This document shows positions 7,301-33,473 of a stretch of DNA of 56,225 nucleotides, piece by piece. Location of the stretch: the IMG/VR virus record IMGVR_UViG_3300044614_000423, positions 1 through 56,225 of that record; one strand, written 5' to 3'. Positions within the stretch are counted from its first letter, which is position 1, and every line of letters begins with the position of its first letter. The notes below the pieces were generated by a model. It saw only the letters and a list, made by a program, of their open reading frames with translations, had not been told where the DNA came from and did no database searches. Source of the DNA: a virus (taxonomy: Duplodnaviria > Caudoviricetes). Made by a program: the position numbers and the translations under genes.

Positions 7301-7745
7301 TTTTCCAACTCCGGATAACACTGTAAAACTTGGATTTCCGTCATATCGTTGGACAACTGTTTATGCAACGACAGGCACAATTAACACATCAGATGTAAAT
7401 CAAAAGCAAGACATTGCTTTGCTTGATGACGCTGAAAAACGTGTTGCCATTGCAATTAAATCACTCATCAAAAAATATCGTTTCAAAGATGCTGTTGCTC
7501 AAAAGGGTGATGCCGCCCGTATTCACGTTGGTGCTATTGCTCAAGATGTACAAGCCGCTTTTGTTGCTGAAGGTTTAGACCCTACTCGATATGCTTTGTT
7601 CTGCTCTGACACTTGGTATGAAGTTGATGGGAAAGCGGGTATGCCCTCTGACCCATACACAGCAGAAACAGAAGGCGCTATTGAAGTCACTAGACTTGGA
7701 TTGCGCTACGAACAACTCTTGGCATTTGTAATTGCCGCACTTTAA
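4386..7745 (+). CDS. Long tail fibre/spike with NTAVG beta-roll repeats and C-terminal intramolecular chaperone (peptidase S74-like)
   Basis: 1119 aa. Dozens of ~14-aa NTAVGxxAxxxNTT repeats; C-terminal TSDVNQKQDI...HVGAIAQDV...GLRYEQL auto-cleavage chaperone signature. Confidence 0.85.
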   Translation: MAQAGYTPISLYYSTTASAVPTAGNLASGELAINITDGKLYYKNNSGVVTLLAGATAGPAGGSNTQVQFNSSGVLAGDADFTFNGTSVTMANDALISGMTVGKGTGAVSTNTVVGNAALFLNTTGASNVAVGINALQSNSSGSNNVAVGQNSLIGNTTGSSNTAIGRDALVFNTTAFNNTAVGYQAGYSNTTGTGLVVLGKTAGYGNTTGSYNVFVGLESGYTNSTGASNTGVGTAALFANTTGGQNTALGRDALVSNTTASSNTAVGYQAAYSNTTGSFNTAVGNQAGYLNTTGVESVYIGRTAGYSNTTGNYNSALGAGALANNTTASNNTAVGYQSLYANATGARSTAVGHSALYSSTVSDNTGIGYFAGYSISSGQYNLAVGGGDGATGSTLSNNTTGSNNTALGFQALRSNTTASSNTAVGYQAGYSNTTGASNTVLGGTAFYSNTAGFNNTAVGRNAMYLNTTGNSNAAFGMGALGNNTIGVNNTALGKDALNANTTESSNTAVGFQAGYSNTTGLYLTAVGSSALFSCTTGLQNNAFGINTLYSTTTGSYNTAFGSQAMLFNTTGFNNTAIGYKALYNNTTAAYNTAVGFEAGIVNTTGLITAFGSQALYSNTTGVGNVAVGGYTTGTNYAALTFNTTGSYNTAMGTGALQGNTTAINNTAVGYQAGYSNTIGESNVALGFQAGYSNTTSGGNTTVGAQAGLGNTADNIVAIGGSALRNNTGAGNTAVGSTTLQINTSGIANTAVGTYLGGSYFGALYANTTGSYNNAFGVGTLVNNTTASANNAFGYAALATNTTGPSNSAFGHAALVANTTGGENVAFGHTALQANTTGSVNSVLGYQALYSNQANSGNVAIGAQAGYSTVRANNNTFVGYQSGYYFNFGSSVNAFNTFIGAGAGSQITTGLKNVVLGSYNGNQNGVDIRTSSNNIVISDGDGNLRGYHVGNQWQWIAGGNGSTTVTWDGSEFFPTPDNTVKLGFPSYRWTTVYATTGTINTSDVNQKQDIALLDDAEKRVAIAIKSLIKKYRFKDAVAQKGDAARIHVGAIAQDVQAAFVAEGLDPTRYALFCSDTWYEVDGKAGMPSDPYTAETEGAIEVTRLGLRYEQLLAFVIAAL
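4700..7150 (+). repeat. Degenerate ~42-bp (14-aa) tandem coding repeats in the tail fibre
   Basis: Repeated NT(A)VGYQAGYSNTTG units; near-identical DNA copies such as aacaccacagcatcta(a/g)caacactgctgtaggttatca at ~5361 and ~5631. Confidence 0.85.
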
Positions 7746-10179: not shown

Positions 10180-10815
10180 ATGACTGCCGCGTCGGTGATG
10201 ACCTACGACTCTCTTGTTGAAAACATCCAGTCCTATCTGGAGCGTAACGACACCTCGACTCTCGACAAGATCCCCCTTTTCATCATGCTCGCCGAGCAGG
10301 TGATCGCATCCAAGATCAAATTCCTCGGAAACCTAACCGTCAACACCAGCACTATGGTGGCCAACAATGCCGTGATCGCGAAACCCGCCCGGTGGCACAA
10401 GACGGTATCGATGAATATTACAGTAGCTGGTCAGCGCGAACCGGTGCTCCTGCGCAAGTACGAATACCTCCGTAACTATGCTCCGGATCCCACTGCTACT
10501 GGTATGCCCAAGTATTACGCGGACTACGACTACTCGAACTGGCTTGTGGCCCCAACGCCTAATGCGGCATATGCTTTCGAAGTACTGTACTACGAACGAG
10601 TACAGCCTTTAGATTCTAGTAACCAGACCAACTGGTTCACTATTTACGCACCACAGGCACTCCTGTACGGCTCGCTCCTGCAAGCGATGCCATTCCTGAA
10701 AAACGACGATCGCGTACCGATGTGGCAATCGCAGTATGAAGCTATTATGGCCACGCTTGCGGAAGAAGATAAACTTCGCCTCGCTGATCGTCAAGCCATT
10801 GCGGTGGATTCATGA
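10180..10815 (+). CDS. Putative tail adaptor / tail tubular protein A-like
   Basis: 211 aa; PKYYA, LVAPTP and ALLYGSL motifs typical of podovirus adaptors. Confidence 0.65.
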   Translation: MTAASVMTYDSLVENIQSYLERNDTSTLDKIPLFIMLAEQVIASKIKFLGNLTVNTSTMVANNAVIAKPARWHKTVSMNITVAGQREPVLLRKYEYLRNYAPDPTATGMPKYYADYDYSNWLVAPTPNAAYAFEVLYYERVQPLDSSNQTNWFTIYAPQALLYGSLLQAMPFLKNDDRVPMWQSQYEAIMATLAEEDKLRLADRQAIAVDS

Positions 10816-12047
10816 GTTACGTCAGCCCTTTCACCGGCGACGTCATCCAACCAACGGATGTAAGCTATCGCGCCGTTACGCTAACAACAAATACCCAGCT
10901 CAACTGGCCATCGAATAGTACCACCAACACTGACTACGCCGCCCGGATCATGCAAGTGACGGCCAGTGGTGCGGGTTTAAGCATGTTCATGCCTCCGGCG
11001 AACCAAGCCTCGGTCGGCAATGATGCACTCATTCGCAACATAGGCGCGAATACCTTTACGGTCAAAGACTACGCCGGTACTAATACTATTGTATCGGTAG
11101 CGGCTGGTGAGTCGAAATATATATACATTACCTCGAATCCCGACGCTCAGGGCACTTGGGGCGTGATCGCATTCGGTACTGGTACATCGTCAGCTGACGC
11201 CGCGACGCTTGCTGGGTACGGGTTAGTCGCCAGTGGTGCGACGCTTAACCAAAGCCACCCGAGCGCGGCGATCACCACCGGTACGACTTTTGCCGCAACA
11301 GATCGCGCACAGACTAGGGTGTGGTCGAGTGGTTCCGGAACCGCAACGCTCCCGGCCGCCGCGACGCTCGGAAACAACTGGTTCACGCTATTCAAGAATA
11401 ACGGCACAGGATCATTCACGATTTCCTGCTCGGGGGCCGAGCTGATTGACGGGAACAGCACGAAAACGTTTAACCCGACGGAATCCGCGTTTATTGTGTG
11501 TACGGGTACGGCCTACGTCACCGTCGGCTACGGCGTCAGTACTCAATTTGCCTTCACCGCGTTGACTAAGAATGTGACTGGTGGTGCTGTAACGCTTACG
11601 AACAATGAAGCGGCGAATAACATTCAGGAGTACGTGGGGTCTTTAACTAGCAACGTTACGGTCACATTCCCACCAATCGTAAACTTGTATGTCATCTCGA
11701 ACCAAACGACCGATAATGGCTTTAGTCTGACTGTCACGACGGGTTTGGGGTTTAGTGCAACAGTGCCGCCCGGTCAGCAAGCCACATTGATATGCGACGG
11801 GGTTAACTTTCTCAACGCTAACACGACTCAAGCTGGTGCGACTACGGTAAGCTTATTGAACGGTACTGTCGGCACTCCATCGCTGAACTTCGCGGCAGAG
11901 ACTGGTACTGGATTGTACCGCCCCGGTGCGGGAGAACTAGCTATCGCCGTTCTTGGCACGAAACGTGTCGGAGTGACCGCTACGGGTGTGTCTGTTACTG
12001 GGTCCGGTACGTTCACTACGGGCATCGCGGGAGGCACGTTCACATGA
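10812..12047 (+). CDS. Tail structural protein
   Basis: 411 aa, T/G/S/N rich, beta-structured; coupled to neighbours by ATGA overlaps. Confidence 0.7.
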   Translation: MSYVSPFTGDVIQPTDVSYRAVTLTTNTQLNWPSNSTTNTDYAARIMQVTASGAGLSMFMPPANQASVGNDALIRNIGANTFTVKDYAGTNTIVSVAAGESKYIYITSNPDAQGTWGVIAFGTGTSSADAATLAGYGLVASGATLNQSHPSAAITTGTTFAATDRAQTRVWSSGSGTATLPAAATLGNNWFTLFKNNGTGSFTISCSGAELIDGNSTKTFNPTESAFIVCTGTAYVTVGYGVSTQFAFTALTKNVTGGAVTLTNNEAANNIQEYVGSLTSNVTVTFPPIVNLYVISNQTTDNGFSLTVTTGLGFSATVPPGQQATLICDGVNFLNANTTQAGATTVSLLNGTVGTPSLNFAAETGTGLYRPGAGELAIAVLGTKRVGVTATGVSVTGSGTFTTGIAGGTFT

Positions 12048-14026
12048 CCAAAAAGGTCTTCGCCCTCGACACCAAACCCGGCGTTCAACGTGATGGTACG
12101 GTATTCGACAAGCAGTTTTACAACTCCGGCCGTTGGGTACGCTTCCAACGTGGACGCCCCCGCAAGATCGGTGGATTTCGCGAGATCGTGAACGACCTAG
12201 CTGGACCCTCCCGTGGTATCTACCTAAATCCACAGCAGAATTTCAACAACGTTTTTAACGGGTACGCTGGCGGATTGCAATTGCTTCCGATCAACAACGC
12301 GGGTACAGGGTCTGGTATTACCGACATGACTCTCACTGGGTTCACAGCAAATGTGAACAATTTGTGGCAATTCGACGCGTTTTTCGACGTCAGCGGATCT
12401 GGTAACAACCTCCTGCTGGCGCATCCGGGCCAAAATGGGACTTTGATCGACAATAATGTGAACACCCCGGTGTTGGGTGGCAATATTACTGGCACGAGCA
12501 TGGCTCCAATTGGTGTGTTCACCCAAGTCGCGGCCACGATCACTTCGGGTTCCCCGAACATCACGTTAACCGCCGCGAACATCCTGATCGGGGCTGGTCA
12601 GTCAGTATCGGGCACTGGGATTCCGTCCGGCGCGACTGTGGTTTCAATCAGCACCACCGCGCTGGTGATTTCAGCTCCGGCGACTGCTAATGGTTCATCC
12701 ATTACTCTTACATTCGACAACGTCATCTCGGTATCCGGTGGTGTGGTGACGCTACACCCATACGTCTTCGTTTACGGGAATGACGGACTTATTCGCAATT
12801 CCTCGGCTGGCAACGCTAACGATTGGGTCTCCGCTGATGCCAACGAGGTATCTGCGGCCACTGGTAAGATCGTGCAAGGTCTCCCAGTGCGCGGTGGATC
12901 GAATGCCCCGTCTGGCCTCTTTTGGAGCTTGGATTCACTTATTCGTGTGTCCTACATTGGTGGCGTGGGCACTCCACCACAATTCTGGCGTTACGACTTG
13001 ATCTCTTCTCAATCCTCGATCTTGTCTTCGCAGTCCGTAATCGAGTACGACGGCGTGTATTATTGGTGTGGCGTTGATCGATTCCTACTCTACAACGGTG
13101 TTGTTAAAGAGATCCCCAACACGTTCAATCAGAACTATTTCTTCGACAACTTGAACTACGATGCTCGCGAGAAGGTGTGGGTGACTAAGGTCCCACGATT
13201 TGGTGAAATTTGGTGGTTCTACCCACGTGGCAATGCGACCGAATGTACTGACGCGATTATCTACAATGTGCGCGAAAACTGCTGGTACGATGCTGGCGAG
13301 TCCCCCGGTGCACAGCGTTCAGCGGGTTTCTTCTCGCAAGTCTTCCATTATCCGATTACAGCCGATTGGAACACCAATGCATCCGGTGGTATTCTTACCG
13401 CGATTATTACTAACGCGGGTTCGGGGTACACTAATGGCACATTCAACAACACGCCACTCACTGGTGGGGCTGGTACAGGAGCAACGGCCAACATCACGGT
13501 CGCTGGCGGCATCGTCACATCTGTGGTAATTAACGGCCACGGAGTGAACTACGCGGTTGGCAACACATTGTCAGCTTCGTTAGCAGGTGGCGCGGGATTC
13601 GTACTCACCGTATCAACACTGATGAGCTTCGTGTCGCTATTCCAAAACGAGATCGGAACCGACAAAGTGTCGGGTTCTACCGCCTTAGCTATCGAGTCTT
13701 TCTTCGAGACCAACGACCTCGGATGGGTTGCCGGTGGTCCATCCCAACCGGCTCCAGTGGGTGACAATAAGTGGTTGCGGTTAGAACGTGTCGAACCCGA
13801 TTTCGTACAAAGCGGCGTCATGGAGCTGTATGTTACCGGACGATCATTCGCGCAATCCTCCGATGTCACTAGTACGGCCTACACGTTTGGCCCGAACACG
13901 AACAAAATCGATATGCGCGAGCAACGTCGCGAGTTGCGCTTAAAATTCGTGTCCAATGTGGCTGGTGGTGACTACCAACTCGGTAAAGTAATTCTCGATG
14001 CCGACGTCGGCGATGTGAGACCCTGA
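12044..14026 (+). CDS. Putative tail nozzle / packaged-DNA stabilisation protein (P22 gp10 / T7 gp12-like)
   Basis: 660 aa; WVRFQRGRPRKIGG, FGEIWWFYP, YNVRENCWY; precedes the ejection proteins. Confidence 0.65.
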   Translation: MTKKVFALDTKPGVQRDGTVFDKQFYNSGRWVRFQRGRPRKIGGFREIVNDLAGPSRGIYLNPQQNFNNVFNGYAGGLQLLPINNAGTGSGITDMTLTGFTANVNNLWQFDAFFDVSGSGNNLLLAHPGQNGTLIDNNVNTPVLGGNITGTSMAPIGVFTQVAATITSGSPNITLTAANILIGAGQSVSGTGIPSGATVVSISTTALVISAPATANGSSITLTFDNVISVSGGVVTLHPYVFVYGNDGLIRNSSAGNANDWVSADANEVSAATGKIVQGLPVRGGSNAPSGLFWSLDSLIRVSYIGGVGTPPQFWRYDLISSQSSILSSQSVIEYDGVYYWCGVDRFLLYNGVVKEIPNTFNQNYFFDNLNYDAREKVWVTKVPRFGEIWWFYPRGNATECTDAIIYNVRENCWYDAGESPGAQRSAGFFSQVFHYPITADWNTNASGGILTAIITNAGSGYTNGTFNNTPLTGGAGTGATANITVAGGIVTSVVINGHGVNYAVGNTLSASLAGGAGFVLTVSTLMSFVSLFQNEIGTDKVSGSTALAIESFFETNDLGWVAGGPSQPAPVGDNKWLRLERVEPDFVQSGVMELYVTGRSFAQSSDVTSTAYTFGPNTNKIDMREQRRELRLKFVSNVAGGDYQLGKVILDADVGDVRP

Positions 14027-14286
14027 TGGCTGAAATTCTCAATCCCGCCCAAGTCTATGATCCTCGCTACCACACTTTCGAGTCGTGGGCGAGTCTTATG
14101 TGCGAACTGTATGCACCCCAACAGCTCTCGATTCCTGACGCCAACACTGACTGGAAACAATGGGCGGCGGGCCTCAAAGCTATCGATGTATTTACGAATG
14201 AAGGCATTCCCGGACCCTATCAATTCGATGACTGGATGGAGTGGGCTGAGGAACTCGTCAACGCTGTGAACCCTGCGGTGAACTAA
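14026..14286 (+). CDS. Trp-rich hypothetical protein
   Basis: 86 aa, TGATG coupling. Confidence 0.7.
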   Translation: MAEILNPAQVYDPRYHTFESWASLMCELYAPQQLSIPDANTDWKQWAAGLKAIDVFTNEGIPGPYQFDDWMEWAEELVNAVNPAVN

Positions 14287-14287
14287 T

Positions 14288-17200
14288 ATGGCACTCAGAG
14301 ATTTTAATATCAGATACGACTTCGAGGACAACGGCGATTTCAACTTTTTCGGCGATGCATACGATCTATTCCCCGGCCTGAATACGTCCCCATTGGCGCA
14401 AGTCGCCCCAGCGCCCGCCGAGACAGATTATTTCGCTAATCAATTTGCGGATGATTTTAAACAGACGCCAGTATCTCCCCTCGCCTCAGTCGCCGCAGAA
14501 TCCGCACCATCCATTCCTCAATCATTCATCGACGCTGAACAACGCGCTTATGAAGATCAACAAATGGTTTTCAGGGATTCGCAAGCAAGGGCACAGGCAC
14601 TCGCCGAACAGCAAGCCGAAGCACAACGTCAGGCGGAAATAGCCGCTGAAGCCGCGAGACGACAAGCAATCGAAGACGCATTTTACGAACAACAGGCAAG
14701 AGCACAAGCTCAACAGCAAGCGGAAGCGCAACGCCAAGCTGAACAACAGGCTGAAGCGCAACGCCAAGCTCAATTAGCTCAACAGGCTGAAGCACAACGC
14801 CAAGCTCTACTAGCTCAACAGCAAGCGGAAGCCGCAAGACAAGCGGAACTTGCAGAGCAAGCTAGACAAGCGCAGTTGGCTGAGCAACGAGCTTATGAAG
14901 ATCAACAAAGAACTTACTTAGAAAATCAAGCTCGCCAAGAAGCCGCACGGGTCGCCGCAGAACAAGAGGCGGCTAGACAAGGTGCACTTCGGCAAGCAGA
15001 AGCTCAACGGCTCGCCGCTGAACAAGAAGCCGCACGGGTCGCCGCAGAACAAGAAGTAGCTAGACAGGGCGCACTCCAACAAGCCGAAGCCGCACGGCAA
15101 GCTGAATTAGCTCAACAGGCTGAAGCGGCGAGGTCGGCCGCCGTCGCTGATGCACCCGCCTCCCGATCACTTTCAGAGTCTGCTGGTGCGTTGGAGCGAG
15201 CCACATCTGAGCTTGGGGATAGTCGAGATGATCCGGTGTCTCGTGTTGATTCTATCGATAGGAGAAATGCAGAATCTGAAGCAAGATTCGAAGCTAATCT
15301 GACATCTGAAGACAGAAAAAACATCGAAACGGCTAATAAATTAGCTACCCAGATTCTTGACCAAAAATTGACCGACAAGTGGACCGGTCAGGGATATGGC
15401 AATGCCGAAGCTAACGCTCGCGACATGGGCAAGATTCTGGCTAGCATTGGTATCACGGACATTAAAGACTTCGGAAAAATCACCAAGACTGTTGATGCCG
15501 AAGTGACTCCACAATATGAGCGTACAATTTCCGGATACGATAACGAGGGAAACCCGATCGTCGATTCAAAAATCGTCGGGTACACGGACCAGTCGGGTAA
15601 CACAGTCGACGCTAGTCTAGTCAAAACCGAATTTGTGAGTGATGGCGAAACCGGGCGAACAGCTTATATGGCTCCCGTAGGCAAGCAAGAAGTGTTCGGT
15701 AATAAGCTCACAGGTCAAGAAGTCCCAAATACTTACAGCGAACGCCAGACTGGTAACTTCTTCGGTGGTACATTCGCCGGTAAAGGTAACACTGGTTACG
15801 GTGTTCAGTTCGATGCCAAAGGAAATCCTTACTTTTACACTGTCGGTGCGTCTTCTAATGATCTAGCGAATTTGATGCAAGATCTTGGTCCACTGGGTCA
15901 GATTGCGATTGCCGTCGCCACTGGTGGATTATCAATCCCACAGCAGATAGCCGCGAACTTAGCAATCAATGTGCTTAGTGGAAAAGATATCGGTGATGCG
16001 ATTAAGGGTGCGGCGATCAGCTATGCGGGAGCGCAGATACCCGGCCTTGAAGCGATTAAAGAGGGTACTAGCTTTCTAAACGGCATCGATTCGACTGGTG
16101 TGCTCGCTAATGCGTTTCAAAACGCCGCAGTATCAGGCGGCACAGCGTTGTTGAGCGGCAGAGACATCGGCGACGCCATGATGAAGGGTGCTATATCCGG
16201 CGGCACTTCGGGTGCGGTAAATGCGCTCATGGGTAACATCGACGGATTTAAAGACCTGACTCCAGCGCAGAAAAATATGGCAATTAATGCCGTCACCGGA
16301 GTGATCTCGGGTCAGCCGTTAGACCAGATCGTCATAAATACTGCGATTGCCGCCGCGAATAATGCGATAGCTCAAGCTAAAAACGAAAACACCGTCATCG
16401 ACCCGTATTTCACACCTTCTACCGATACGACTTCTACTGGTGCGGGGGTGTTCGTACAGGCGAAGCAAGCCGGTGCTACCGACGCGGAAGCTTTGAGTGC
16501 CGCAAATGCTGTCACTGGAGCTAGTACGAACGTCAGTGCTCCGGCGACCACGCCAGACGTGGATACCACTGCCACCAATACTCAGGTCACCAATAACACG
16601 GTGACAGGCGGCACTGGTAGCGATAACGCGACTACTAGCACAATTGGTGGCTTTGATCAAGGTGAATTCGAGGGCGTTGATCGAGCGATTGAACAGCAGT
16701 CTCGTAATACTGAAGTCGAAAGGTTAGTAACCGCCTATGAAAAAACGACTGGAAAATCCTTCGCTAAACTCACCGACAAAGAGGTAGCGGCGTTGGCGTA
16801 TACGGCCAACTCAATGACCGTCGATGAACTCAAGAACGCGTCGATTCAAGACATTTTAAATAAAGTACCCGCTATTGTCGGAAAGGATGATCAAGGCCGA
16901 TGGGTCGATGACAAGGGCTTCGCCTATGATGAACGTGGATTTAGATACGCGCCGGGTAACACGGTCCCGATGTTCGATGTTGTCGGTGTAGGAAATACTG
17001 GTACGCCTACAGCGGCTCAAAATCTAGATACGGCTGGTAACAATTTAGTTAATTGGGCGAACACACTCGAAGGCACTTCTGGTGATGTGGTTCGTCAAAC
17101 TCTGTCGACGCTGATTGGTGCGGGTGGCGAACAAATTGCTGACCTTGGCACTGCACTGGCCAATATGGGAGTGGCCGAACGTTATAACTTGCTTGTGCAA

Positions 17201-19651
17201 CTGGGTCAGGCACTCGAAGGTACTGGGCAAAAGCTCGAGATACCCGGTGTCACTCAAGCCACTGAGAATTTCTGGAACGATATCCAAGGGGCGGATACGT
17301 ACGCTGGAAAGGCGGCCGCCGCGATCAGGTCCGTTCTCAACAACCCATTGGTGCTCACTCAAGTCGCTAAAGAAGGCCTCCAAGAGGTGCTTCCGATCGT
17401 TACCGGTGGTGCGGTATTTAAAATACTAGGTAAAGGCGCAGGTATCGCTACTGACGTTCTAATGAACGCTTCGGAATCCATGGGTTCGCAATCTCGCCAA
17501 AAGTTTAATGAAGAGATCGCCAAGGGCACACCAGTCGATGAGGCTGAGAGGCTGGCCAACGCTGACGGATGGAAGGCGTTTGCTATTACGACTGTTACAG
17601 CGGGACTTGCCGATGCGTCGCTTGTCAAAGGTTACGAAAAAGCGATGGAGAAGTTATTTGGCAAGACTACCACGTCGGTCGGCAAAGAGTGGGCGGAAGA
17701 AGGTTTCGAAGAACTGGCGGTTGCACTTGCTACCGGTGATGACCTTGCGACCGCTATGTCAAAATCTATTGCGGGTAGCACCATAGGCTCTAAAACCTCT
17801 GGTACATTCACTGCTGGTTCTAGCGTCTCCGCAGATATTCAACAAGCATTCGCGTCCGAAGGCCTCACATCCTCCGATGGATCATTCCGTCCCGAAACTA
17901 TTACTAAAATCACCGATGCGAGCACGGCGGGTGCTACTAACACCACTCCCGATGTGGTGACTGGCGGCGCAGATACCGTTGCGGGCACAGATTTCTCGAC
18001 GATCTTCTTGAATACTGGAGATTTAACGCAAGCCATTGATACATCAATTGGCTCCGCGATTAACAGTGGTGTCGATCCAAGCGTCGCGATCACATCAGTC
18101 ATCAACGCCGCGAACAGTGTTGGGGCTGACCCGAACACGGTGGCTGTTGCCGCCGTCAATGCCGCCACAACTGCCACTACTGCACCGTCAACGGCCACTA
18201 CTGCGCCAGCTACGGCCACTACTGCGCCAGCTACAGTGACTACTGCACCGTCAACGGCCACTACTGCGCCAGCTACGGTGACTACTGCACCGTCAACGGC
18301 CACTACTGCGCCAGCTACTGCGACACCGACAACGGCCGGTATTGATACGACTGTGTCGAACACCGTTGCTACTGCCATCAGCTCCGGGACAAATCCGGCC
18401 ACTGCTGTCAATTCCGCTGTTACTACTGCAGTAAGTGCTGGTACTAATCCGGTCGTGGCTATTGGCTCCGCTGTGACCGCGGCAGTAAACGCTGGGACAG
18501 ATCCAACAACTGCTGTGACTGCGGCGGTGACTGCGGCTACAAATTCGGGCGTTGACATGACTGTTGCGACTAATGCCGCGAACAACGCCGCGAACAATGC
18601 CGCGACTGCGGCCGCCGGGATCACTACCAACACTACGGTGGATTCCGGCGCAAATACGACGACGACTACTACGACCAACGCGAATAATAATACAACGACT
18701 ATAGTCAGCACGAACACGAACACGGGCGCAACGACCACTACTAACACTAACAACAACACCGGGATAGACACCAGCATCACCCAAAACCCTGATACCAACA
18801 CTACGAACAAAACGGTAACCAACACTAACACCGATTTGACAGTTAGTGTGAACATTGACGACTCCACCGGCGCAGTCGTAAGTATTAATGGCCCCGGTAC
18901 TGTGATCGACAAAGACACTGTGGTGGTCGATGGTACTCCGATTGACGTGAATACCGGTGAAATTCTGTCACCGGAAGAAGTCGAGAAGCGCAAAAAGGCG
19001 GCAGTCAATAAGACCCCTGTCAGCCCAAGTAGACCCCCCAGCGGAACAGGCAATATAACCATTACTGAACCCACCTACGCCGCCAAAAAGAGTGACATTG
19101 CCGAGACTTGGCTCGGAGGTCGATTCCGTAACATCGCGCCCCTCGCTGGACTCGGCGCATTACTTCCACAAGACTCACCTATGTTTCAAGAAGCACAAGC
19201 AATCTCGGCACTACGCCGCGCCTCTGGGATCGATAACGAGGCCAAGACCCCCGAGGCCGACTATTACGCCTATGGCACTGAACCCTCCTACGCCAAGGTC
19301 CTTGAACCGTTCATGAATGGGGGGACTGTACAGAAATATGCCGAAGGTGGTAAAATAATGGCTTCTCCACTAATGGCGGCGTCGGGCGGCGATGTACCAC
19401 ACAAAGGCTCACACTACGTACAGGGCGCGGGCGGCGGTCAGGACGATCTCATCCCCGCCCAGCTCGCCGACGGCGAGTACGTGTTCGACGCGGATATCGT
19501 GGCGGCACTGGGTGACGGCTCGAACAAAGAGGGTGCCAAAAAGCTGGACGCGATGCGGGAAGCGATCCGCAAGCACAAGCGCGGCGGTTCCATCAAATCA
19601 ATTCCTCCAGCGGCTAAATCGCCCTTGGCATATCTGAAAGGCGTATTATGA
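14288..19651 (+). CDS. Very large putative internal virion/ejection protein
   Basis: 1787 aa: EQAR coiled-coil repeats, T/A/N low-complexity region, C-terminal xxGG motifs and a DDLIPAQLADGEYV domain. Confidence 0.7.
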   Translation: MALRDFNIRYDFEDNGDFNFFGDAYDLFPGLNTSPLAQVAPAPAETDYFANQFADDFKQTPVSPLASVAAESAPSIPQSFIDAEQRAYEDQQMVFRDSQARAQALAEQQAEAQRQAEIAAEAARRQAIEDAFYEQQARAQAQQQAEAQRQAEQQAEAQRQAQLAQQAEAQRQALLAQQQAEAARQAELAEQARQAQLAEQRAYEDQQRTYLENQARQEAARVAAEQEAARQGALRQAEAQRLAAEQEAARVAAEQEVARQGALQQAEAARQAELAQQAEAARSAAVADAPASRSLSESAGALERATSELGDSRDDPVSRVDSIDRRNAESEARFEANLTSEDRKNIETANKLATQILDQKLTDKWTGQGYGNAEANARDMGKILASIGITDIKDFGKITKTVDAEVTPQYERTISGYDNEGNPIVDSKIVGYTDQSGNTVDASLVKTEFVSDGETGRTAYMAPVGKQEVFGNKLTGQEVPNTYSERQTGNFFGGTFAGKGNTGYGVQFDAKGNPYFYTVGASSNDLANLMQDLGPLGQIAIAVATGGLSIPQQIAANLAINVLSGKDIGDAIKGAAISYAGAQIPGLEAIKEGTSFLNGIDSTGVLANAFQNAAVSGGTALLSGRDIGDAMMKGAISGGTSGAVNALMGNIDGFKDLTPAQKNMAINAVTGVISGQPLDQIVINTAIAAANNAIAQAKNENTVIDPYFTPSTDTTSTGAGVFVQAKQAGATDAEALSAANAVTGASTNVSAPATTPDVDTTATNTQVTNNTVTGGTGSDNATTSTIGGFDQGEFEGVDRAIEQQSRNTEVERLVTAYEKTTGKSFAKLTDKEVAALAYTANSMTVDELKNASIQDILNKVPAIVGKDDQGRWVDDKGFAYDERGFRYAPGNTVPMFDVVGVGNTGTPTAAQNLDTAGNNLVNWANTLEGTSGDVVRQTLSTLIGAGGEQIADLGTALANMGVAERYNLLVQLGQALEGTGQKLEIPGVTQATENFWNDIQGADTYAGKAAAAIRSVLNNPLVLTQVAKEGLQEVLPIVTGGAVFKILGKGAGIATDVLMNASESMGSQSRQKFNEEIAKGTPVDEAERLANADGWKAFAITTVTAGLADASLVKGYEKAMEKLFGKTTTSVGKEWAEEGFEELAVALATGDDLATAMSKSIAGSTIGSKTSGTFTAGSSVSADIQQAFASEGLTSSDGSFRPETITKITDASTAGATNTTPDVVTGGADTVAGTDFSTIFLNTGDLTQAIDTSIGSAINSGVDPSVAITSVINAANSVGADPNTVAVAAVNAATTATTAPSTATTAPATATTAPATVTTAPSTATTAPATVTTAPSTATTAPATATPTTAGIDTTVSNTVATAISSGTNPATAVNSAVTTAVSAGTNPVVAIGSAVTAAVNAGTDPTTAVTAAVTAATNSGVDMTVATNAANNAANNAATAAAGITTNTTVDSGANTTTTTTTNANNNTTTIVSTNTNTGATTTTNTNNNTGIDTSITQNPDTNTTNKTVTNTNTDLTVSVNIDDSTGAVVSINGPGTVIDKDTVVVDGTPIDVNTGEILSPEEVEKRKKAAVNKTPVSPSRPPSGTGNITITEPTYAAKKSDIAETWLGGRFRNIAPLAGLGALLPQDSPMFQEAQAISALRRASGIDNEAKTPEADYYAYGTEPSYAKVLEPFMNGGTVQKYAEGGKIMASPLMAASGGDVPHKGSHYVQGAGGGQDDLIPAQLADGEYVFDADIVAALGDGSNKEGAKKLDAMREAIRKHKRGGSIKSIPPAAKSPLAYLKGVL
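18176..18322 (+). repeat. 7 x 21-bp tandem repeat encoding TTAP(S/A)T(A/V)
   Basis: actactgcaccgtcaacggcc / actactgcgccagctacggcc-type units read directly. Confidence 0.9.
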
Positions 19652-20649
19652 GTATATTTCAAGGCGATCCCCTACCGAATATTGACACGACCAAGGTAGT
19701 CGATACCACTGGTCCGGATTGGTACACGACATATCTTGAAGGACTTGCGAAGCCCGGCACGGAATTGCTTGGCAAGACCGGCACGGATTTGGTCGCCCCC
19801 ATGTCCGGATTGCAAACGGATGTGCTCGATGTCGCTAAATCTGGCGGCATTGGCGGATACGAGGGCATGCTGGGTGAAGCTAAAGATACGTCGAGACTCG
19901 CCGCCGCTGGCGTTACCCCCGAGATGATTCAGGGCTTCATGAATCCTTACACGTCGAGTGTGGTGGACGAAATGGAGAGACTCCAACAGCAAAGTATGCA
20001 ACGCTCGCTGATTCCGTCTTTGAAAGGCGCGTTCGCTGGCACTGGTGGTATGGGCAGTCAGCGTATGTTCGGCGCGATGGGTCAAATGGGGGCTGACGCT
20101 CAGGCGAATCTGCTTGGGGCGCAGACCAAAGCTCTATCGTCGGGCTACGACAGTGCGTTGAAGGCCGCAATGGACCAATCGGGACTGTACCGTAGTGCCG
20201 CCGAAACCCAACGAGGACTTGCCGGATCGGAACTCGATCTGAAGCTCAAAGAATTAGAGCGCATGTACAATTTGGGTGGCGAAGAGCAGAAGCTGGAGCA
20301 AACCGGAATCATGGCACCACTAGCCGCCGCGACTGGGGCGGCCAACGTGTTCTCGAATGTTAAAGTACCAAGTACTGTATCCGAGAAAGCTAGTGCCCCG
20401 ATCCCCGGAGCATATTCCACATCGCCACTCGCAACAATCGCAGGCCTTGGTTCACTGTTCGCATCAGGTTCCGGTGGTACAAGTGCCGCGACGGGATTTG
20501 GCAATGCGTTTGGTGCGCTGGGTACATCACTTGGTAAACTATTTAGTAGCCCGAGCTTCGACTCATACTTCACGGGTGGTAACAGTGGCTTCACTGGACA
20601 AACCGACGAATTCGGCGGCATGGAAGAACCTCGAGCACCCGGCGGATAA
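19648..20649 (+). CDS. Putative DNA transfer/ejection protein
   Basis: G/A/S rich, FMNPYT motif, glycine-rich hydrophobic C-terminus; typical podovirus position. Confidence 0.65.
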   Translation: MSIFQGDPLPNIDTTKVVDTTGPDWYTTYLEGLAKPGTELLGKTGTDLVAPMSGLQTDVLDVAKSGGIGGYEGMLGEAKDTSRLAAAGVTPEMIQGFMNPYTSSVVDEMERLQQQSMQRSLIPSLKGAFAGTGGMGSQRMFGAMGQMGADAQANLLGAQTKALSSGYDSALKAAMDQSGLYRSAAETQRGLAGSELDLKLKELERMYNLGGEEQKLEQTGIMAPLAAATGAANVFSNVKVPSTVSEKASAPIPGAYSTSPLATIAGLGSLFASGSGGTSAATGFGNAFGALGTSLGKLFSSPSFDSYFTGGNSGFTGQTDEFGGMEEPRAPGG

Positions 20650-20657
20650 GGACTATC

Positions 20658-22277
20658 ATGGCAGAACCTACTGAAGACACAAGCGGCTACAGCCCACTGC
20701 TCGCGCAGATGATGAAGATCGACCCCGAGAAGATCGGGAGCGTATCGCTTTCGGCTCTTGGACGACAGGCGATGGGTTCCGAATCGGAGTCCTACAAAGC
20801 CGCGAAAGCGGAAGTGGACGCCGCACGCGAGACTATGAAGCAAGCGTTGCAAGACCGCAAGGGCCGAATCGACCCCACTTTCCTCGCATTGGCCCAAGGC
20901 TTCCTCGCCCCTACTCGTACTGGCTCTTTTGGTGAGTCTCTTGGTACAGCCGCTGGTGCTTTCGGGAAAGCGCAAGAAGCGGAAGCGGATCGGAATGCAC
21001 AACTGGCCAAGATGCGCTACGAACTGTCACTTAAAGCCGTCGAAGAGGAAAAAGAGGCGGCAAAGCTCGGCCTCAATGTAGTGTCGAAGCTTACCCCGCA
21101 GATGACCGCGTACCAGAAGCAAGTGCAATCCGAGGGTATTGATCCACGCTCACCGGCTGGGATACTCCGTGTAAAAGAACTGCTTGCGATCGACAAAGCA
21201 ACGCCTGAGATGAAGGCATTCGCTGGACAATCCGGAATCTCACTCACGGACCCAAGCTTCGCGATGAAATTCAAGATGTTCGAGGACACGAAGGGTCTAC
21301 GCGACATCGCTACTCGTCTGAATCTGAATCTGAACGATCCCGCACAACTCGTCACTGCACAACAAGAAGCCCAACGCGAGAAATTCCGCGCCGAAAACAA
21401 GCTTGTGGCCGACGCGTTGCAGACATTTGGTGGCGATCCGCTCAATCCAAAGGACCTTGCCCGCGCACAGAAGATCGTCGATACGAATGTGGCTTTGGAT
21501 CAGCAGAGCAAACGTACCTCAATCGCGGCACAAATCGCACAGACCACCCGGACTAAGCAAGAGATCGACGACCACATACGCAATGGCGATATCAACGCGA
21601 TCGTTACCAAAGCTATGGACGTTGGTGTGCCGATTGACCCGAAGACCTCCTATCGGGGTCTCAACAAGATCGAGATGGCTAAGAAGCGCGAGAGTGACTT
21701 GAATGAATCAGGCAGGTACATACGCGAAAAAATCTCGCCGTTCACTGCCGGAATCGAAGACGATATTCGCAACCTCGAGCGTGCTCTGAAGCTTAACTCC
21801 GAAATAAGCACCGGGTACACCTACGGTATTGGGTTCGGCGTTGGTGACATCGCGAAGCTCACTTCCGGTGACCGTGCCAAGATTAACGAGTTCGATTCGC
21901 TGTCCGCGCTTGCCGCCAAGCAAAACCGTATCCCCGGCGATTCCAATGTGTCGAACTTGGACGTCAAGATGATGCAACTCGGCACGTTCAGCTCCGACAA
22001 AGAGCCGTCTACCAATAAAACCCTGCTCGAGTTCCAGATCGCGCAACGCCGACGCGACGCTGAGTTTAATAAATACATGGCTGACTACGCCGCCGTGAAC
22101 GGTGCTATCACGCCTTTCGCGGAAGCTCAATGGCGCAGGTATTTAGATGCGAACCCGATCACGGTGCGTGATGACAAAGGCCGAGTATCGATTAATCCGA
22201 ACCGGATGACTTACCAGCAATACTTCAGCATGCCCCGCGTGCGTGTTGACAGCCAAGGACGGGAGACTCAGCAATGA
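20658..22277 (+). CDS. Putative ejection protein
   Basis: 539 aa, helical; position in the ejection cluster. Confidence 0.6.
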   Translation: MAEPTEDTSGYSPLLAQMMKIDPEKIGSVSLSALGRQAMGSESESYKAAKAEVDAARETMKQALQDRKGRIDPTFLALAQGFLAPTRTGSFGESLGTAAGAFGKAQEAEADRNAQLAKMRYELSLKAVEEEKEAAKLGLNVVSKLTPQMTAYQKQVQSEGIDPRSPAGILRVKELLAIDKATPEMKAFAGQSGISLTDPSFAMKFKMFEDTKGLRDIATRLNLNLNDPAQLVTAQQEAQREKFRAENKLVADALQTFGGDPLNPKDLARAQKIVDTNVALDQQSKRTSIAAQIAQTTRTKQEIDDHIRNGDINAIVTKAMDVGVPIDPKTSYRGLNKIEMAKKRESDLNESGRYIREKISPFTAGIEDDIRNLERALKLNSEISTGYTYGIGFGVGDIAKLTSGDRAKINEFDSLSALAAKQNRIPGDSNVSNLDVKMMQLGTFSSDKEPSTNKTLLEFQIAQRRRDAEFNKYMADYAAVNGAITPFAEAQWRRYLDANPITVRDDKGRVSINPNRMTYQQYFSMPRVRVDSQGRETQQ

Positions 22278-24328
22278 CCATCGAGCGAGTGATTAACGGC
22301 ACGATTTACGAATTCCCCGAGGGTACATCCGAGGCCACAATTCGCAAGTTCACGCTGAACAAAGCGGGAACACCCGATGCCACAGCACCTGCCGCACCTG
22401 TGCGACCACAGGTCCAACGCCCTGAAGCAATGTTGCCCGGTGCGGCGGGTCAGGCACTCCAAGGCCTCTCCATGGGATTTTCGGACGAGGCTATCGCTCG
22501 GTTACGCTCGCTCAAGGGCGACCGGAGCTACGAGGACTTAGTGAAGGCCGAGCGCGAAGGCTTGCGCAAATACGCCGAGGCTAATCCACGCACTGCAATG
22601 GCTTCCGAACTTGGCGGTGCACTCGTCCCCGCCGTCTTTACCGGTGGCGCGGGCGCGATCCCTCAGGTGTCAAAAGCCGTGGGTCCGAAGTTGGCGAATT
22701 TACTGTTCGGTAAGGCTCCAAGTATCCCTCGAATGATGGGCTACGGTGCTGGGTCCGGTGCAGTGACTGCCGTTGGTACATCCGAAAAACCCGTCGACGA
22801 GCTGGGCGGTGAGGCACTCAAAGGTGGTGCCGCTGGCGCAGTTACTACCGGTGCGGCCGGATTGCTGGGTAAATACGTGGCGATGCCCGCGTTCAACAAG
22901 ATCAAGACCTCGCTCGGATTCGGTGACGCGAACAAGGCGGCCGACATTGCGATTGTGAAGGCACTGGAGAAGGACGGGATGACACCCGACCAAGCACTAG
23001 CCAAGATGCAAGCCATGTCCCGTGGCGAGATCACCCTTGCGGACCTCGGCGAGAACACTGCCGCACTCCTGCGCCGTGCTACCGCCGCGCCGTCCCCCGC
23101 ACGTATTTTGGGCAAGTCCGAACTCGCCGGTCGCGAGCTGGAGCGTATCCCTCGTGTGTCCGAGGACCTTCGCACCCTGATGTCCGGCTCCAAGGACTTC
23201 TACACGGACGTGCTCGACCTGATTAAGAAGCGCAGTGACGAAGCCGACCCACTCTACAAAGCGGCTTGGGCGAGTGCACCGACTTTTAACCCCACTACTG
23301 CCCCCGACATCGCTAGGCTCCGGAATCTACCCACATTCAAGGAAGCGATGAAGATCGGCGCGAAACGCATGGCGGACAACGACCTTAGCATCGCCGATCC
23401 GAGAAATACACTGCGTGCTTTGCACGAGACCAAGATCGCGCTGGACGACATGATCGAGAGTGCGATGCGGGAGGGTAAGGGTGGTCAAGCCGGGACATTG
23501 CTAGAAATGAAGCGGCGACTCCTCACCGACATGGAAAAAGCCTCACCCGAATACCGAATCGCACGGCAGACCTTTGCTGGTGATTCCGAGCTGTTGACGG
23601 CGATGAAAGAAGGCCAGCGGATTTACACGCTCCCCGAGCTGGAAATGCGCAAGCTCATCGACCGCTTTAAGGATTCTCCGTCCGAGTACGACGCCTTCCG
23701 GTCCGGCATCTCGCAGGCGATGCTGGAGAAGCTTCGAGTCGCCGGTCCGACCGCTGACCCCATGAAGTCGATCTTGTCTCGTGACGCCGAGCAAAAGCTT
23801 CGCCGAGCTTTCCGTGACGACGCCGCCTTTGATGAATTCAAGGACCGACTGCTTCAGGAGCGCACGATGCTCCAGACCGAAAAAGCCGGGTTCCGTCGTT
23901 CACCACTGGATACCGACCTTGATCAAGGTGCGGGTGGGGTGGGTGCCGCCGCGAACTTGATGGCCGGACGCCCATTTACTGCCGCCGGGGATGCACTCCG
24001 TGCCCAGTTCCCGAACCTGATCGGGATGTCACCCCGGATTGCCCAGCCCACCACTGAGAAGCTTTTGACGCCGACCGCTAAAGTGGACACGGTTATTGAC
24101 AGTATCATGCAGTCGCTCAAACAGCAAGAGCAGTCATTGCTCACTTCAAGTCGTGTTACGAACGCTGGTGCGACACTTGCGGGGGGACTCGCCGCCGCTC
24201 GAGATCCTAAAGACCAGTACCCCGAGGATACCATGGCCCCCACACGGCCACCGAAGATCGAGCTATCTGGCATGGCGACCCCGCCAGCCGGTCCCCCGCC
24301 CTCTCCCTTAAGCTCCATGGGCCAGTAA
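22274..24328 (+). CDS. Putative ejection protein
   Basis: 684 aa; YEFPEGT N-terminus, QGLSMGFSDE motif, glycine-rich hydrophobic segments. Confidence 0.6.
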   Translation: MTIERVINGTIYEFPEGTSEATIRKFTLNKAGTPDATAPAAPVRPQVQRPEAMLPGAAGQALQGLSMGFSDEAIARLRSLKGDRSYEDLVKAEREGLRKYAEANPRTAMASELGGALVPAVFTGGAGAIPQVSKAVGPKLANLLFGKAPSIPRMMGYGAGSGAVTAVGTSEKPVDELGGEALKGGAAGAVTTGAAGLLGKYVAMPAFNKIKTSLGFGDANKAADIAIVKALEKDGMTPDQALAKMQAMSRGEITLADLGENTAALLRRATAAPSPARILGKSELAGRELERIPRVSEDLRTLMSGSKDFYTDVLDLIKKRSDEADPLYKAAWASAPTFNPTTAPDIARLRNLPTFKEAMKIGAKRMADNDLSIADPRNTLRALHETKIALDDMIESAMREGKGGQAGTLLEMKRRLLTDMEKASPEYRIARQTFAGDSELLTAMKEGQRIYTLPELEMRKLIDRFKDSPSEYDAFRSGISQAMLEKLRVAGPTADPMKSILSRDAEQKLRRAFRDDAAFDEFKDRLLQERTMLQTEKAGFRRSPLDTDLDQGAGGVGAAANLMAGRPFTAAGDALRAQFPNLIGMSPRIAQPTTEKLLTPTAKVDTVIDSIMQSLKQQEQSLLTSSRVTNAGATLAGGLAAARDPKDQYPEDTMAPTRPPKIELSGMATPPAGPPPSPLSSMGQ

Positions 24329-24772: not shown

Positions 24773-26335
24773 ATGACTAGTCTAGTTCAAGACTACGCAA
24801 ATCTGTTCGCCGGTAACCTTCGGTCCTTTGGACAGTGGGACCCAGCGACAGGCAAGATGGTGACAGAAAAGAGCGAGGTCACGCTCCAGCATTACGCCGA
24901 CCACTTGGAGGGCCGGATGGGGCTGGGTATAGTCCCAATCACGGACGGCGGCACAGTACTGTTCGGCTGTATCGACGTGGATAACCACGGCAAAGGATCC
25001 GACGGGTCCGACATCGACATTCCGAAGCTTGTGGAAAAGATCGAGCACTATCGGCTCCCGCTAGTGGCTACTCGTAGCAAGTCGGGTGGAGCGCACCTGT
25101 ACCTGTTCGGCGAGGAATACCTCCCGGCCAAGCTTGTGATCCGGCTACTCAATTCGTGGCGCGACATGCTTCAAATCCCGAACCACGTGGATATCTTTCC
25201 GAAGCAGGACTCGCTGACCACGTCCAGTGGTGAGAAGTCGCTGGGGAACTGGATTAACCTACCATTCTTCGACAAAGACCGGACGGTGCGGTACGCGGTG
25301 GATGACAAAGGCCAGAAAATGTCGTTCGAGCTGTTCATCTCGTACGCCCAGTCGCGCCGGGTCACGGTGGCGGCACTGCAGGAGATAGCTCACCGGGAGC
25401 ACTTGGAGGCCCCGCCGTGCATCCAAAAGATGATTCACACGGGCGTCGAATCCGGCTCACGCAATGACTCGATGTACAACGTGGTAGTGTACCTCAAGCG
25501 TGCCCGCCCCGACACATTCTTTGACGATGCGATGGAGCTGAACAAGACCATGTTCGACAAGCCGCTCGGCCCGGCTGAGGCCAAGAAGGTGATCCGCTCC
25601 GCGTCCCGCCGTGACTACCTGTACAAATGTAGCGAGGAGCCGTGCAAGTCGCTCTGCGACCGTAAGGTGTGCGTCACTCGCGAGTTCGGTATCTCGACCG
25701 AGGAGAGCAAGGAGCTGGATGCGCAAGACTCGCTACCCCAGTTCACCGAGCTGATCGAGTACCAGTCCGAACCCCCGCGCTGGGGCATCCACGTCAACGG
25801 GAAGCTCATCGCGAACATACCAACAATTATATTACGTGATCCTGCCGCAATGGGTACGCTGATTTTTGAACAGCTCAAGATCAACATCCCCAAGATCACT
25901 CAAGACTCGTGGCGGCGTCGTATCCTCGATCCGCTCATCCCGACGCTACGGGTGATCGAAGTACCAAAAGAGGCCAGTGCCTCGGGCATCATTGCCGCGA
26001 AGTTCAACGAGTTCGTGCAAAAGGCCGACCTGACCTCCGATGGCACTAATACTGAGGACCGCAAGGCACTGACCCGCAACATCCCGGTGGTGCAAGTCAT
26101 CAACGGCGTGCGGTGCATCGTGTTCCGTGGTACAGCGTTCTCCGAATTCCTTAAGCGCAACAAGGCCGAGGTGATGACGGGCATGGACCTGTGGACGTCA
26201 CTGCGGCGCGACTGCGGCGCGGACCACGACAAGCTCCGAATTCCGGGCGGCAAGCCCATCAACGTTTGGTACGCTCCCATAACTGAAGATCACGAGGTGA
26301 AAGTCGATGAACCCAAGTTCCGATCAGAATTCTAA
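24773..26335 (+). CDS. Archaeo-eukaryotic primase (AEP/prim-pol) with PriCT-like domain
   Basis: Motif I IDVD, motif II SKSGGAHLY, IFPKQ...NLPF, GSRND (PriCT), Cys cluster. Confidence 0.85.
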   Translation: MTSLVQDYANLFAGNLRSFGQWDPATGKMVTEKSEVTLQHYADHLEGRMGLGIVPITDGGTVLFGCIDVDNHGKGSDGSDIDIPKLVEKIEHYRLPLVATRSKSGGAHLYLFGEEYLPAKLVIRLLNSWRDMLQIPNHVDIFPKQDSLTTSSGEKSLGNWINLPFFDKDRTVRYAVDDKGQKMSFELFISYAQSRRVTVAALQEIAHREHLEAPPCIQKMIHTGVESGSRNDSMYNVVVYLKRARPDTFFDDAMELNKTMFDKPLGPAEAKKVIRSASRRDYLYKCSEEPCKSLCDRKVCVTREFGISTEESKELDAQDSLPQFTELIEYQSEPPRWGIHVNGKLIANIPTIILRDPAAMGTLIFEQLKINIPKITQDSWRRRILDPLIPTLRVIEVPKEASASGIIAAKFNEFVQKADLTSDGTNTEDRKALTRNIPVVQVINGVRCIVFRGTAFSEFLKRNKAEVMTGMDLWTSLRRDCGADHDKLRIPGGKPINVWYAPITEDHEVKVDEPKFRSEF

Positions 26336-31366: not shown

Positions 31367-31633
31367 ATGGCAACATACGATAACACCAATTCGGGCATGA
31401 TGGCCCGTAACGAGCGTCGCACCACCGACAAGCACCCCGAATTCTCCGGCTCGATCAACGTCGAGGGCGTGGATTATTGGCTCTCGGCTTGGGTTAATGA
31501 GGGCAAGGCTGGTGGTAAGATGGAAGGCAAAAAGTACTTCTCCATCAAGCTGTCGCGCAAAGAGGGCGGCGTTGGCACTTCCGGCCGATCAGCGAGTGAT
31601 TCGAGCTACGAATCTGACGACATCCCGTTCTGA
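31367..31633 (+). CDS. Small SSB-like protein
   Basis: 88 aa, beta-rich, ends in the SSB-type tail DDIPF. Confidence 0.7.
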   Translation: MATYDNTNSGMMARNERRTTDKHPEFSGSINVEGVDYWLSAWVNEGKAGGKMEGKKYFSIKLSRKEGGVGTSGRSASDSSYESDDIPF

Positions 31634-33468: not shown

Positions 33469-33473
33469 AGGTA

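Follow-up and report, generated by a model that had tools for sequence, protein, structure and literature searches.

The virus genome held as IMG/VR record IMGVR_UViG_3300044614_000423 (Duplodnaviria; Caudoviricetes), the full 56,225 bases of which are referred to here as the window, encodes on its + strand (14288-19651) a 1787-residue, tape-measure-like putative ejection (internal virion) protein that we call X. Based on homologue searches, alignments and the comparison of related loci, we propose that X is a tape-measure-like ejection protein, that its last ~110 residues constitute a docking and assembly module and that the most likely partner of this module is the 333-residue product of the gene directly downstream (d333; 19648-20649, + strand); we put the probability of this reading at roughly one half. 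The conserved C-terminal region, as delimited by the homologue search and alignment, comprises residues 1672-1787 (~116 residues; 19301-19648, + strand). It is conserved, terminally placed and embedded in a constant gene order, it shares a core unit with the tape measure proteins of siphophages, it diverges together with d333 and it has no peptidase signature. From these observations we infer the presence of X in the virion, its ejection, its docking and the identity of its partner.

The end of X reads YAEGG (residues 1684-1688), ASGG, VQGAGGGQDDLIPAQLADGEYVFDADIV and HKRGG (1763-1767), followed by 20 more residues and the stop codon, in agreement with the reading given in the original prediction, made from the sequence alone. 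A phmmer search with the last 166 residues of X against 1.84e9 cluster representatives returned 6760 matches at E<=1e-3, 3285 at E<=1e-10 and 57 at E<=1e-30. Because thousands of representatives match, the module is not due to chance. Among the best 150 of the 6760, which are proteins of 111-2000 residues, the match always ended at most 10 residues from the C-terminus, and DGE[YFW]V was located 53-61 residues (median 56) from the C-terminus in 146 of them. The alignment of X with these 150 sequences (151 rows) showed that residues A1724, A1727, D1728, E1730, V1732, V1738, G1742, G1744, G1749, L1753, R1757, R1761, K1764, R1765, I1772, P1773, P1779 and Y1782 are invariant and that H1763 and P1774 are each present in 150 rows. 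The (near-)invariant parts are a centre, A-x-[IL]-A-D-G-E-Y-V, a stretch after it, V...A-[LI]-G-x-G-[SD]-N-K-x-G-A-x-x-L-D-x-M-R-E-x-[IL]-R-x-H-K-R, and a terminal stretch, I-P-P-x-A-K-S-P-L-x-Y. X carries every hallmark of the family, i.e., DGE[YF]V at the set distance, the G-x-G-[SD]-N-K helix, HKR and IPPxAKSPLxY. Moreover, a second, word-indexed search of 5.8 billion proteins yielded 781 relatives among 1575 candidates; the 120 relatives listed were all unnamed or 'hypothetical' except for one that its source calls 'mucin-2', 118 of them were without a Pfam domain, and many were located on contigs of 52-59 kb.

Several parts can be distinguished within the module. On its N-terminal side lies YAEGG (19337-19351, + strand), an [FYM]AxGG element with the counterparts FANGG in phage DSL-LC04, YAEGG in MinM2, ARGG in GB2A and FATGG in Clawz gp56 and lambda gpH. 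The X stretch YAEGG...ASGG aligned with a degenerate first copy of the unit, in which GGKIMASPLMAASGG (19346-19390, + strand) corresponds to the G-D-Y-V...A-A-L-G-(D)-G stretch of two-copy relatives; likewise, the stretch YAEGGKIMASPLMAASGG is a degenerate version of their upstream unit copy in the 151-row alignment. A full second, upstream copy (G-x-G-Q-S-D-D-I-P-A-x-L-x-D-G-D-Y-V...A-A-L-G-D-G-S-S-K-A-G) was found in 76 of the 146 representatives. The core unit itself (residues 1708-1760; 19409-19567, + strand) consists of a Gly-rich lead, DDLIPAQLADGEYV, which is a predicted strand-turn, and a helix ending in MREAI, and it is this part that tape measure proteins also have. When all six frames of the window were searched with a hidden Markov model (HMM) of the unit, there was a single match, in the open reading frame (ORF) of X (93.3 bits). 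Its invariant centre, DGEYV (residues 1728-1732; 19469-19483, + strand), is conserved to 151, 149, 151, 140 and 151 of the 151 rows for D, G, E, Y and V, respectively. The invariant basic triplet HKR (residues 1763-1765; 19574-19582, + strand; H in 150, K and R in all 151 rows) is specific to the podophage family and lies outside the unit shared with tape measures. The terminal peptide IPPAAKSPLAYLK (residues 1772-1784; 19601-19639, + strand), with I1772, P1773, P1779 and Y1782 in all 151 rows and P1774 in 150, is a candidate docking peptide. The original prediction had described the domain as flanked by xxGG motifs. Across the family, [FY]xxGG occurs within 80 residues upstream in 77 of the 146 representatives and hydrophobic-xxGG in 104; on the C-terminal side, HKR is followed by GG in only 12 of the 146 and by SA in 102.

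The module had no match in Pfam (E<=10) or NCBIfam (E<=1), and a single-sequence search of the PDB returned nothing better than E 0.72. Its neighbours in the ESM Atlas were exclusively unnamed viral clusters, apart from a lead to crAss cargo protein 1 with a language-model score of 0.85. The latter (PF25725) was rejected, as this level of score is rated 'often chance' and there was no Pfam match at E<=10. An RTX-like calcium repeat, Hint/intein and M23 or SH3-like motifs, which were considered on the basis of pattern comparison only, were likewise rejected, and no tool match supported any of them. An AlphaFold2 (AF2) monomer model of the last 116 residues (42-row alignment) had a predicted local distance difference test score (pLDDT) of 54.8, with helices only at residues 64-71, 76-94 and 108-112, and it is proposed from this model that the module is not a stable fold alone. 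Co-folding of three copies of the same segment, run without controls, scored 0.09 against a mark of 0.42, which has no bearing either way on self-association.

As judged by profile comparison, the core unit, [FYM]AxGG ... G-x-G ... D-x-[IV]-P-A ... GE[FY]V ... helix, is also present in bona fide tape measure proteins of siphophages, as the original prediction had stated for an [FY]AxGG..GE[FY]V module. The PHROG matches of the X module itself were weak (phrog_6090, E 2e-5; seven more families labelled as tape measure, E 0.003-0.19). Among 42 family members, 39 matched phrog_6090, which carries the tape measure label (best E 9e-9), and other tape-measure PHROGs were matched by 14 (phrog_3547), nine (phrog_17300), six (phrog_25241) and five members (phrog_5448 and phrog_23013 each). 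These labels are possibly circular because the GenBank homologues of X have themselves been automatically annotated as tape measures; therefore, independent tape measure cases were sought, and alignment with such proteins matched the unit in mycobacteriophage Douge gp16 and Gordonia phage Clawz gp56. The tape measure gp16 of Douge was the one significant sequence in a comparison of the family profile with the PDB (8zdo_S, E 6.3e-6). It has two copies of the unit, at ~970-1003 and ~1413-1449 of its 1699 residues, each after an xA(G/N)GG-F lead. In the cryo-EM structure as described in PMC13033339, residues 1658-1699 alone are resolved, bound in the baseplate hub. Clawz gp56 (1727 residues) is encoded between the tail assembly chaperone and the minor tail proteins. 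The unit HMM matched its residues 1205-1249 (23.5 bits, independent E-value 1e-8), with FATGG (1198) before and YAGGG (1269) after the match, and a weaker copy was located at ~901-930, between MRRGG and YATGG (947). In hhalign, the family alignment matched the Clawz segment with a probability of 80.9% (E 1.2e-5) over 43 columns that include the helix. The tape measures of Douge, Clawz and the PHROGs thus resemble X in the [FY]AxGG lead, the Gly-rich stretch, D-x-[IV]-P-A, GE[FY]V and a unit helix that ends in L-D-x-x-R, as well as in a long, helix-rich, partly hydrophobic body with low-complexity sequence. They differ in that their unit lies within the C-terminal half of the protein, in some cases as two copies, without forming its end, whereas that of X is fixed at the extreme C-terminus; in contrast to them, X also has the additional HKR...IPPxAKSPLxY tail and is encoded after a podophage nozzle rather than after tail chaperones.

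For lambda gpH, which the original prediction had named as a carrier, the resemblance is only suggestive, although the statement was right for tape measures generally. By eye, gpH shows the pattern, i.e., a Gly-rich stretch at 702-721, FATGG at 733, GEFVF at 754 and YATGG at 778, but the statistics were weak: 1.8 bits against the unit HMM at 750-769, with 18 of 2000 shuffles as good, an hhalign probability of 6% and a BLASTP E-value of 3.1, and one of the 42 family members matched the PHROG of gpH itself (phrog_24). According to PMC12617516, gpH is cut (gpH -> gpH*/gpHC), with the catalyst and the site described as not known, and its residues 818-849 bind the tail-tip protein gpI. The Gly-rich stretch, which lies in the region of the reported cutting, directly precedes FATGG/GEFVF. 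Lambda gpHC would thus be like the X module in having FATGG, GEFVF and YATGG after a Gly-rich stretch and a C-terminal part that is held by gpI (PMC12617516), and unlike it in that the bound residues are not the similar stretch (about 733-782). Comparison of the podophage, actinophage and lambda versions revealed that the Glu of GE[FY]V is the only residue common to all of them. The conserved D and E that had been singled out for mutation therefore fared differently: Glu is present in every version, but neither Asp is found in that of lambda. Where the common version reads G-Q-S-D-D, X has Asp in place of the Ser.

An indication of a partner came from a distance-matrix comparison across 44 loci with all six genes (946 pairs). 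The distances between modules correlated with those of d333 at r 0.82, compared with 0.24 for the adaptor, 0.20 for the 411-residue protein, 0.29 for the nozzle and 0.18 for the 86-residue ORF, all of which are encoded upstream of X. In a partial Mantel test, in which the adaptor/411-residue background was regressed out, r was still 0.82 for d333, a value that 0 of 999 permutations reached; for the nozzle it was 0.19, which 2 of 999 reached, and for the 86-residue ORF -0.02. Since the module tracks d333 and, to a much smaller extent, the tail genes, it belongs evolutionarily to the downstream cassette, and these distances place a mosaic (recombination) boundary inside the variable body of X. 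As a sign of contact, the co-divergence is supportive rather than decisive, because two overlapping genes that are tightly linked would show it as well. The d333 protein, the reading frame of which overlaps the stop codon of X, is predicted to be largely alpha-helical (AF2 pLDDT 63; mostly long helices, at 91-131 and 137-236), and its best-conserved stretch is the N-terminal ~35 residues. It had no family match, and when its model was compared with the PDB by Foldseek, no structure matched at E<=1e-3; what appeared were unspecific long-helix matches. In loci L031-L039, the genes from the adaptor to the 86-residue protein were 82-89% identical to those of the window, the module 56-57% and d333 35-36%.

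The window is a complete virus record (CheckV 100%) with all of its long ORFs on the + strand. Based on an SU10-type adaptor, a VP1-type nozzle and the lack of a tube or sheath family match, the genome is classified as podophage-type. Family scans (Pfam and others), which covered 48 of the 66 called ORFs, gave no match to tail tube, sheath, tape measure or tail chaperone families; the earlier description of a podovirus-type genome with no recognisable tape measure is in agreement with this. Gene X is preceded by a tail cassette (10180-14286, + strand) that is composed of the adaptor (10180-10815; PF24175 SU10_adaptor, E 4.8e-27), a 411-residue protein (10812-12047), the nozzle (12044-14026; E 5e-10 against 8zkk, the nozzle gp16 of Vibrio podophage VP1, with the identity of VP1 taken from PMC13730344) and an 86-residue acidic protein (14026-14286). 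It is followed by d333 and by two further proteins of the putative ejection block, d539 and d684 (20658-24328, + strand). X is therefore located after the adaptor and nozzle, i.e., outside any long-tail module with its order from tube and chaperone to distal tail and hub. Among 80 related IMG/VR loci, sampled from 565 confirmed relatives, the nozzle and the homologue of the 86-residue protein were present in all 46 loci with at least 8 kb of upstream flank, and a d333 homologue was found downstream in 67 of the 68 loci with at least 1.2 kb of flank, at a median gap of 9 nt. The order around X is also kept in Caulobacter phage GB2A, cyanophage MinM2 and phage DSL-LC04.

In contrast to its end, the remainder of X is highly variable. 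Composition in 60-residue blocks showed an A/Q/E/R-rich, coiled-coil-like part (residues ~80-300), a hydrophobic G/A/I/V/L-rich part (~540-720) and a T/S/N/P-rich part of low complexity (~1200-1560) built on DNA tandem repeats; tandem repeats are located at 14705-15098 and 18168-18318. Neither whole X nor its N-terminal pieces matched anything in Pfam, NCBIfam or PHROGs, and the N-terminal part was recognisable only in the closest relatives. Across 66 related loci, the open frame of X ranged from 373 to 2038 residues. This variation beside an unvarying adaptor-nozzle cassette argues against a role as a tail-length ruler. The homologues in isolates, namely Caulobacter phages RW/RLK/KcrB/GB2A (580 residues), cyanophages MinM2/Pag-Yong1/Pra-JY27 (294 residues) and DSL-LC04 (759 residues), have the C-terminal module in common with X and much shorter N-terminal bodies, and the gene order that they share with the window is a small ORF, X, a ~330-residue, a ~440-640-residue and a large protein. 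They have been variously labelled as tape measure, calcium-binding, solute-binding or hypothetical, and none has been characterised; the Caulobacter phage paper (PMC11053796) only lists a 'tail tape measure protein'. Three cyanophage records, OQ594354, OL906435 and PP438419 (deposited under Synechococcus, Planktothrix and Planktothricoides), are all 65,014 bases long and have identical module match statistics at different coordinates. The three resemble permuted versions of a single genome, and their X homologue has been labelled in three ways.

Taken together, X would be a tape-measure-like protein that a nozzle-type podophage carries inside the virion and ejects. Its hypervariable N-terminal body, with coiled-coil, Gly/Ala-rich hydrophobic segments and disordered Thr/Ser/Asn-rich spacers, would act as an extended and partly membrane-active spacer. 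The last ~110 residues would form the conserved assembly and docking module from three elements, i.e., the [FYM]AxGG lead, one or two copies of the short strand-turn-helix unit centred on DGE[YF]V, and the family-specific basic tail, HKR ... IPPxAKSPLxY. This module may become ordered on binding its partner, most likely d333, and once docked it would fix X in a stack of ejection proteins. Low AF2 confidence outside the helices would be expected if the segment acquires its fold on a partner. In T7 and P22, the internal-core and ejection genes lie right after the adaptor and nozzle genes. The position of X directly after the adaptor and nozzle is similar to that of the podophage internal core and ejection proteins (T7 gp14-gp16, P22 gp7/gp20/gp16), and, like theirs, the block to which X belongs comprises several large proteins that are helical and partly hydrophobic and contain no enzymatic domain. 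The proposed docking would also parallel that in siphophages, in which C-terminal parts of tape measures are held by tail-tip proteins, gpI in lambda and the hub in Douge.

Several observations weigh against the docking proposal. X, d333 and d539 had no match to the families of T7 gp14-16 or P22 gp7/20/16 in PHROG and Pfam, and X is a putative virion protein by its gene position. The parallel with tip docking is an indirect one, as in neither siphophage do the bound residues belong to the shared unit: in Douge, the hub-bound residues 1658-1699 lie outside the unit copies (~970-1003 and ~1413-1449), which are unresolved, and in lambda, residues 818-849, bound by gpI, lie outside the similar stretch, itself a weak match. 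The co-divergence with d333 may reflect mere linkage of overlapping genes together with the recombination boundary inside X. A literature search, in a library that lacked most subscription journals, turned up no account of either the unit or this podophage family.

Two other explanations assign the module a different task, and both appear unlikely. The first is that it is a processing element, in which X would be cut during maturation at the [FYM]AxGG lead and the Gly-rich stretch, with the neighbouring unit holding this site in position. The cut, autocatalytic or made by a separate protease, would release a long body and a ~100-residue C-terminal fragment comparable with gpH*/gpHC. The Gly-rich stretch of lambda (702-721), in the region of the reported gpH cut and directly before FATGG and GEFVF, is in line with this, as are the xxGG motifs on either side of the unit in lambda and in the two copies of Clawz. 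Additionally, lambda gpK has a JAB peptidase domain that was proposed to cut after the C-terminal glycine of gpI (PMC1779556), and such cutting could, we infer, extend from gpI to gpH. However, no JAB or other peptidase was found among the 48 of 66 window ORFs scanned, apart from the S74 chaperone domain of a tailspike; [FY]xxGG is missing within 80 residues upstream in 69 of the 146 representatives, and no residue besides the Glu is universal. Moreover, according to PMC12617516, cleavage has been reported for the tape measures of lambda and T5 only.

The second, which we regard as just as doubtful, is that the module acts on the host envelope: it would leave the nozzle first, bind the membrane, peptidoglycan or a periplasmic or inner-membrane protein, and start a trans-envelope conduit, a task common to podophage X and tape measure proteins. 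This would suit a unit that is shared by X and tape measures, both of which would exit first and cross the envelope, and it is consistent with the basic tail of the module (HKR and the K-rich terminal peptide) and with the Gly/Ala-rich hydrophobic segments of X, which resemble those of tape measure proteins. Nevertheless, the module is nearly identical in Caulobacter phages, cyanophages and thousands of metagenomic lineages, and therefore a phage partner fits better than host-specific targets. It also co-diverges with a phage protein, d333, and matched no known wall- or membrane-binding domain in Pfam or NCBIfam.

Considerably less probable still is a role at the DNA end, in which the leading end of the genome would be held within the portal-nozzle channel by the basic C-terminal tail. 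Lys, Arg and Pro are indeed abundant in the last 25 residues, and within phage tails the tape measure protein is reported to lie against the DNA (PMC13033339); however, it is the N-proximal end of the siphophage tape measure, not its C-terminal part, that meets the DNA (PMC13033339, PMC12617516), and the module had no match to DNA-binding families in Pfam or NCBIfam.

The proposal that had originally been made for the domain, i.e., that it recognises or cuts [FY]xxGG, whether within X itself or in trans on dispersed tagged proteins, fared worst. Its trans form, a small reader or peptidase that acts on the tags of other virion proteins, is highly improbable: the D, E, H, K and R that are invariant within the podophage family and the [KR][FY]xxGG-like motifs of three other ORFs (254-781, 37917-39185 and 47950-49167) would suit it, but no peptidase homology was found by sequence, profile or structure (none in Pfam at E<=10, NCBIfam at E<=1 or PDB at E<=10), H, K and R are missing from the tape measure versions and both Asp from that of lambda, and the module does not fold alone in AF2. 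The enrichment of [FY]xxGG was only marginal, with 14 occurrences in the 66 called ORFs against 8.8±2.9 expected and 28 of 500 shuffles reaching 14. Nor is the motif beside the unit a separate tag, since the module of relatives has [FYM]AxGG built into its own N-terminal part. The motifs in the three ORFs are probably the dispersed tags that were meant. The first ORF (254-781) encodes a 175-residue protein with a C-terminal DUF6321 domain (PF19846, E 6e-22) and with FKDGG and MKDGG in a basic context, pieces of which match many PHROGs of unknown function; the others contain RYKKGGL (37917-39185) and KFANGG/PFNKGG (47950-49167).

Further features of the genome were recorded during the analysis. 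Within the putative ejection block, residues 244-275 of d539 (20658-22277) gave a sub-threshold match to PF09392, the family of type III secretion needles (E 3e-5), with 24.6 bits where the cut-off is 29.4. The d684 protein has a Gly/Ala-rich hydrophobic stretch and matched only phrog_5880, a PHROG of unknown function. In GB2A, the counterparts of d539 and d684 go under the label 'lytic tail protein', and in DSL-LC04 under that of 'DNA transfer protein'; PDB searches with the 411-residue and the 684-residue neighbours returned nothing below E 0.18. In the 1119-residue tailspike or fibre (4386-7745), nine repeated stretches match PHROGs of virion proteins, and the C-terminal part carries an intramolecular chaperone domain (Peptidase_S74, E 9e-8), the sole peptidase-type domain found among the scanned ORFs. 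The terminase, portal and capsid genes are located at 46.5-55.5 kb (portal, 49200-51698), with a GroES/Cpn10-like protein (52030-52479; PF00166, E 8.5e-8) between the portal and capsid-assembly genes.

The region at 31633-36855 contains a gene set typical of 2-aminoadenine (Z-base) genomes, with a family A DNA polymerase (31633-33468), a PurZ-type adenylosuccinate synthetase homologue (33393-34601; phrog_1211, E 2e-88) and an HD-domain dATP triphosphohydrolase-like protein (36292-36855; phrog_7076, E 2e-31). Judging from these genes, A is probably replaced by Z in the DNA of this phage. An archaeo-eukaryotic-type primase (24773-26335; phrog_21866, E 2e-126) also matched the archaeo-eukaryotic primase domain that Pfam named after the TOTE conflict system (PF22548, E 7e-14), and a 289-residue protein with a histone deacetylase-type domain (37079-37948; PF00850, E 2e-26) is unusual for a phage replication or early region.

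The module is very common, with thousands of metagenomic clusters at 50% identity, yet it is without a Pfam, NCBIfam or structural description, and the public labels of its carriers are inconsistent (tape measure, calcium-binding, solute-binding or hypothetical). The automatic 'tape measure' labels were already known; what is new is that a tape-measure-type module is fixed at the C-terminus of a podophage protein that is probably not a ruler. Tape measure and podophage ejection proteins are usually treated as analogous in function only, and the shared unit provides a concrete sequence link between tape measures and a podophage protein that is encoded at the position of an ejection gene. As the similar stretch of lambda comes directly after the gpH cut region, the unit and its xxGG flanks are cheap targets for mutagenesis, and culturable carriers of the module exist in the Caulobacter phages of the Riverwalk cluster, which grow on C. 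vibrioides CB15. A wider and distinctly tentative idea, to which we give rather low odds, is that the unit is an ancient cassette of tape measures and of the first ejection protein of nozzle-type podophages, that it marks a joint anchoring and cleavage site (as in gpH -> gpH*/gpHC), and that X is a descendant or ancestor of tape measures in which the ruler role was lost. If this were true, the unit would open a way, at the level of sequence, into how tape measures are processed.

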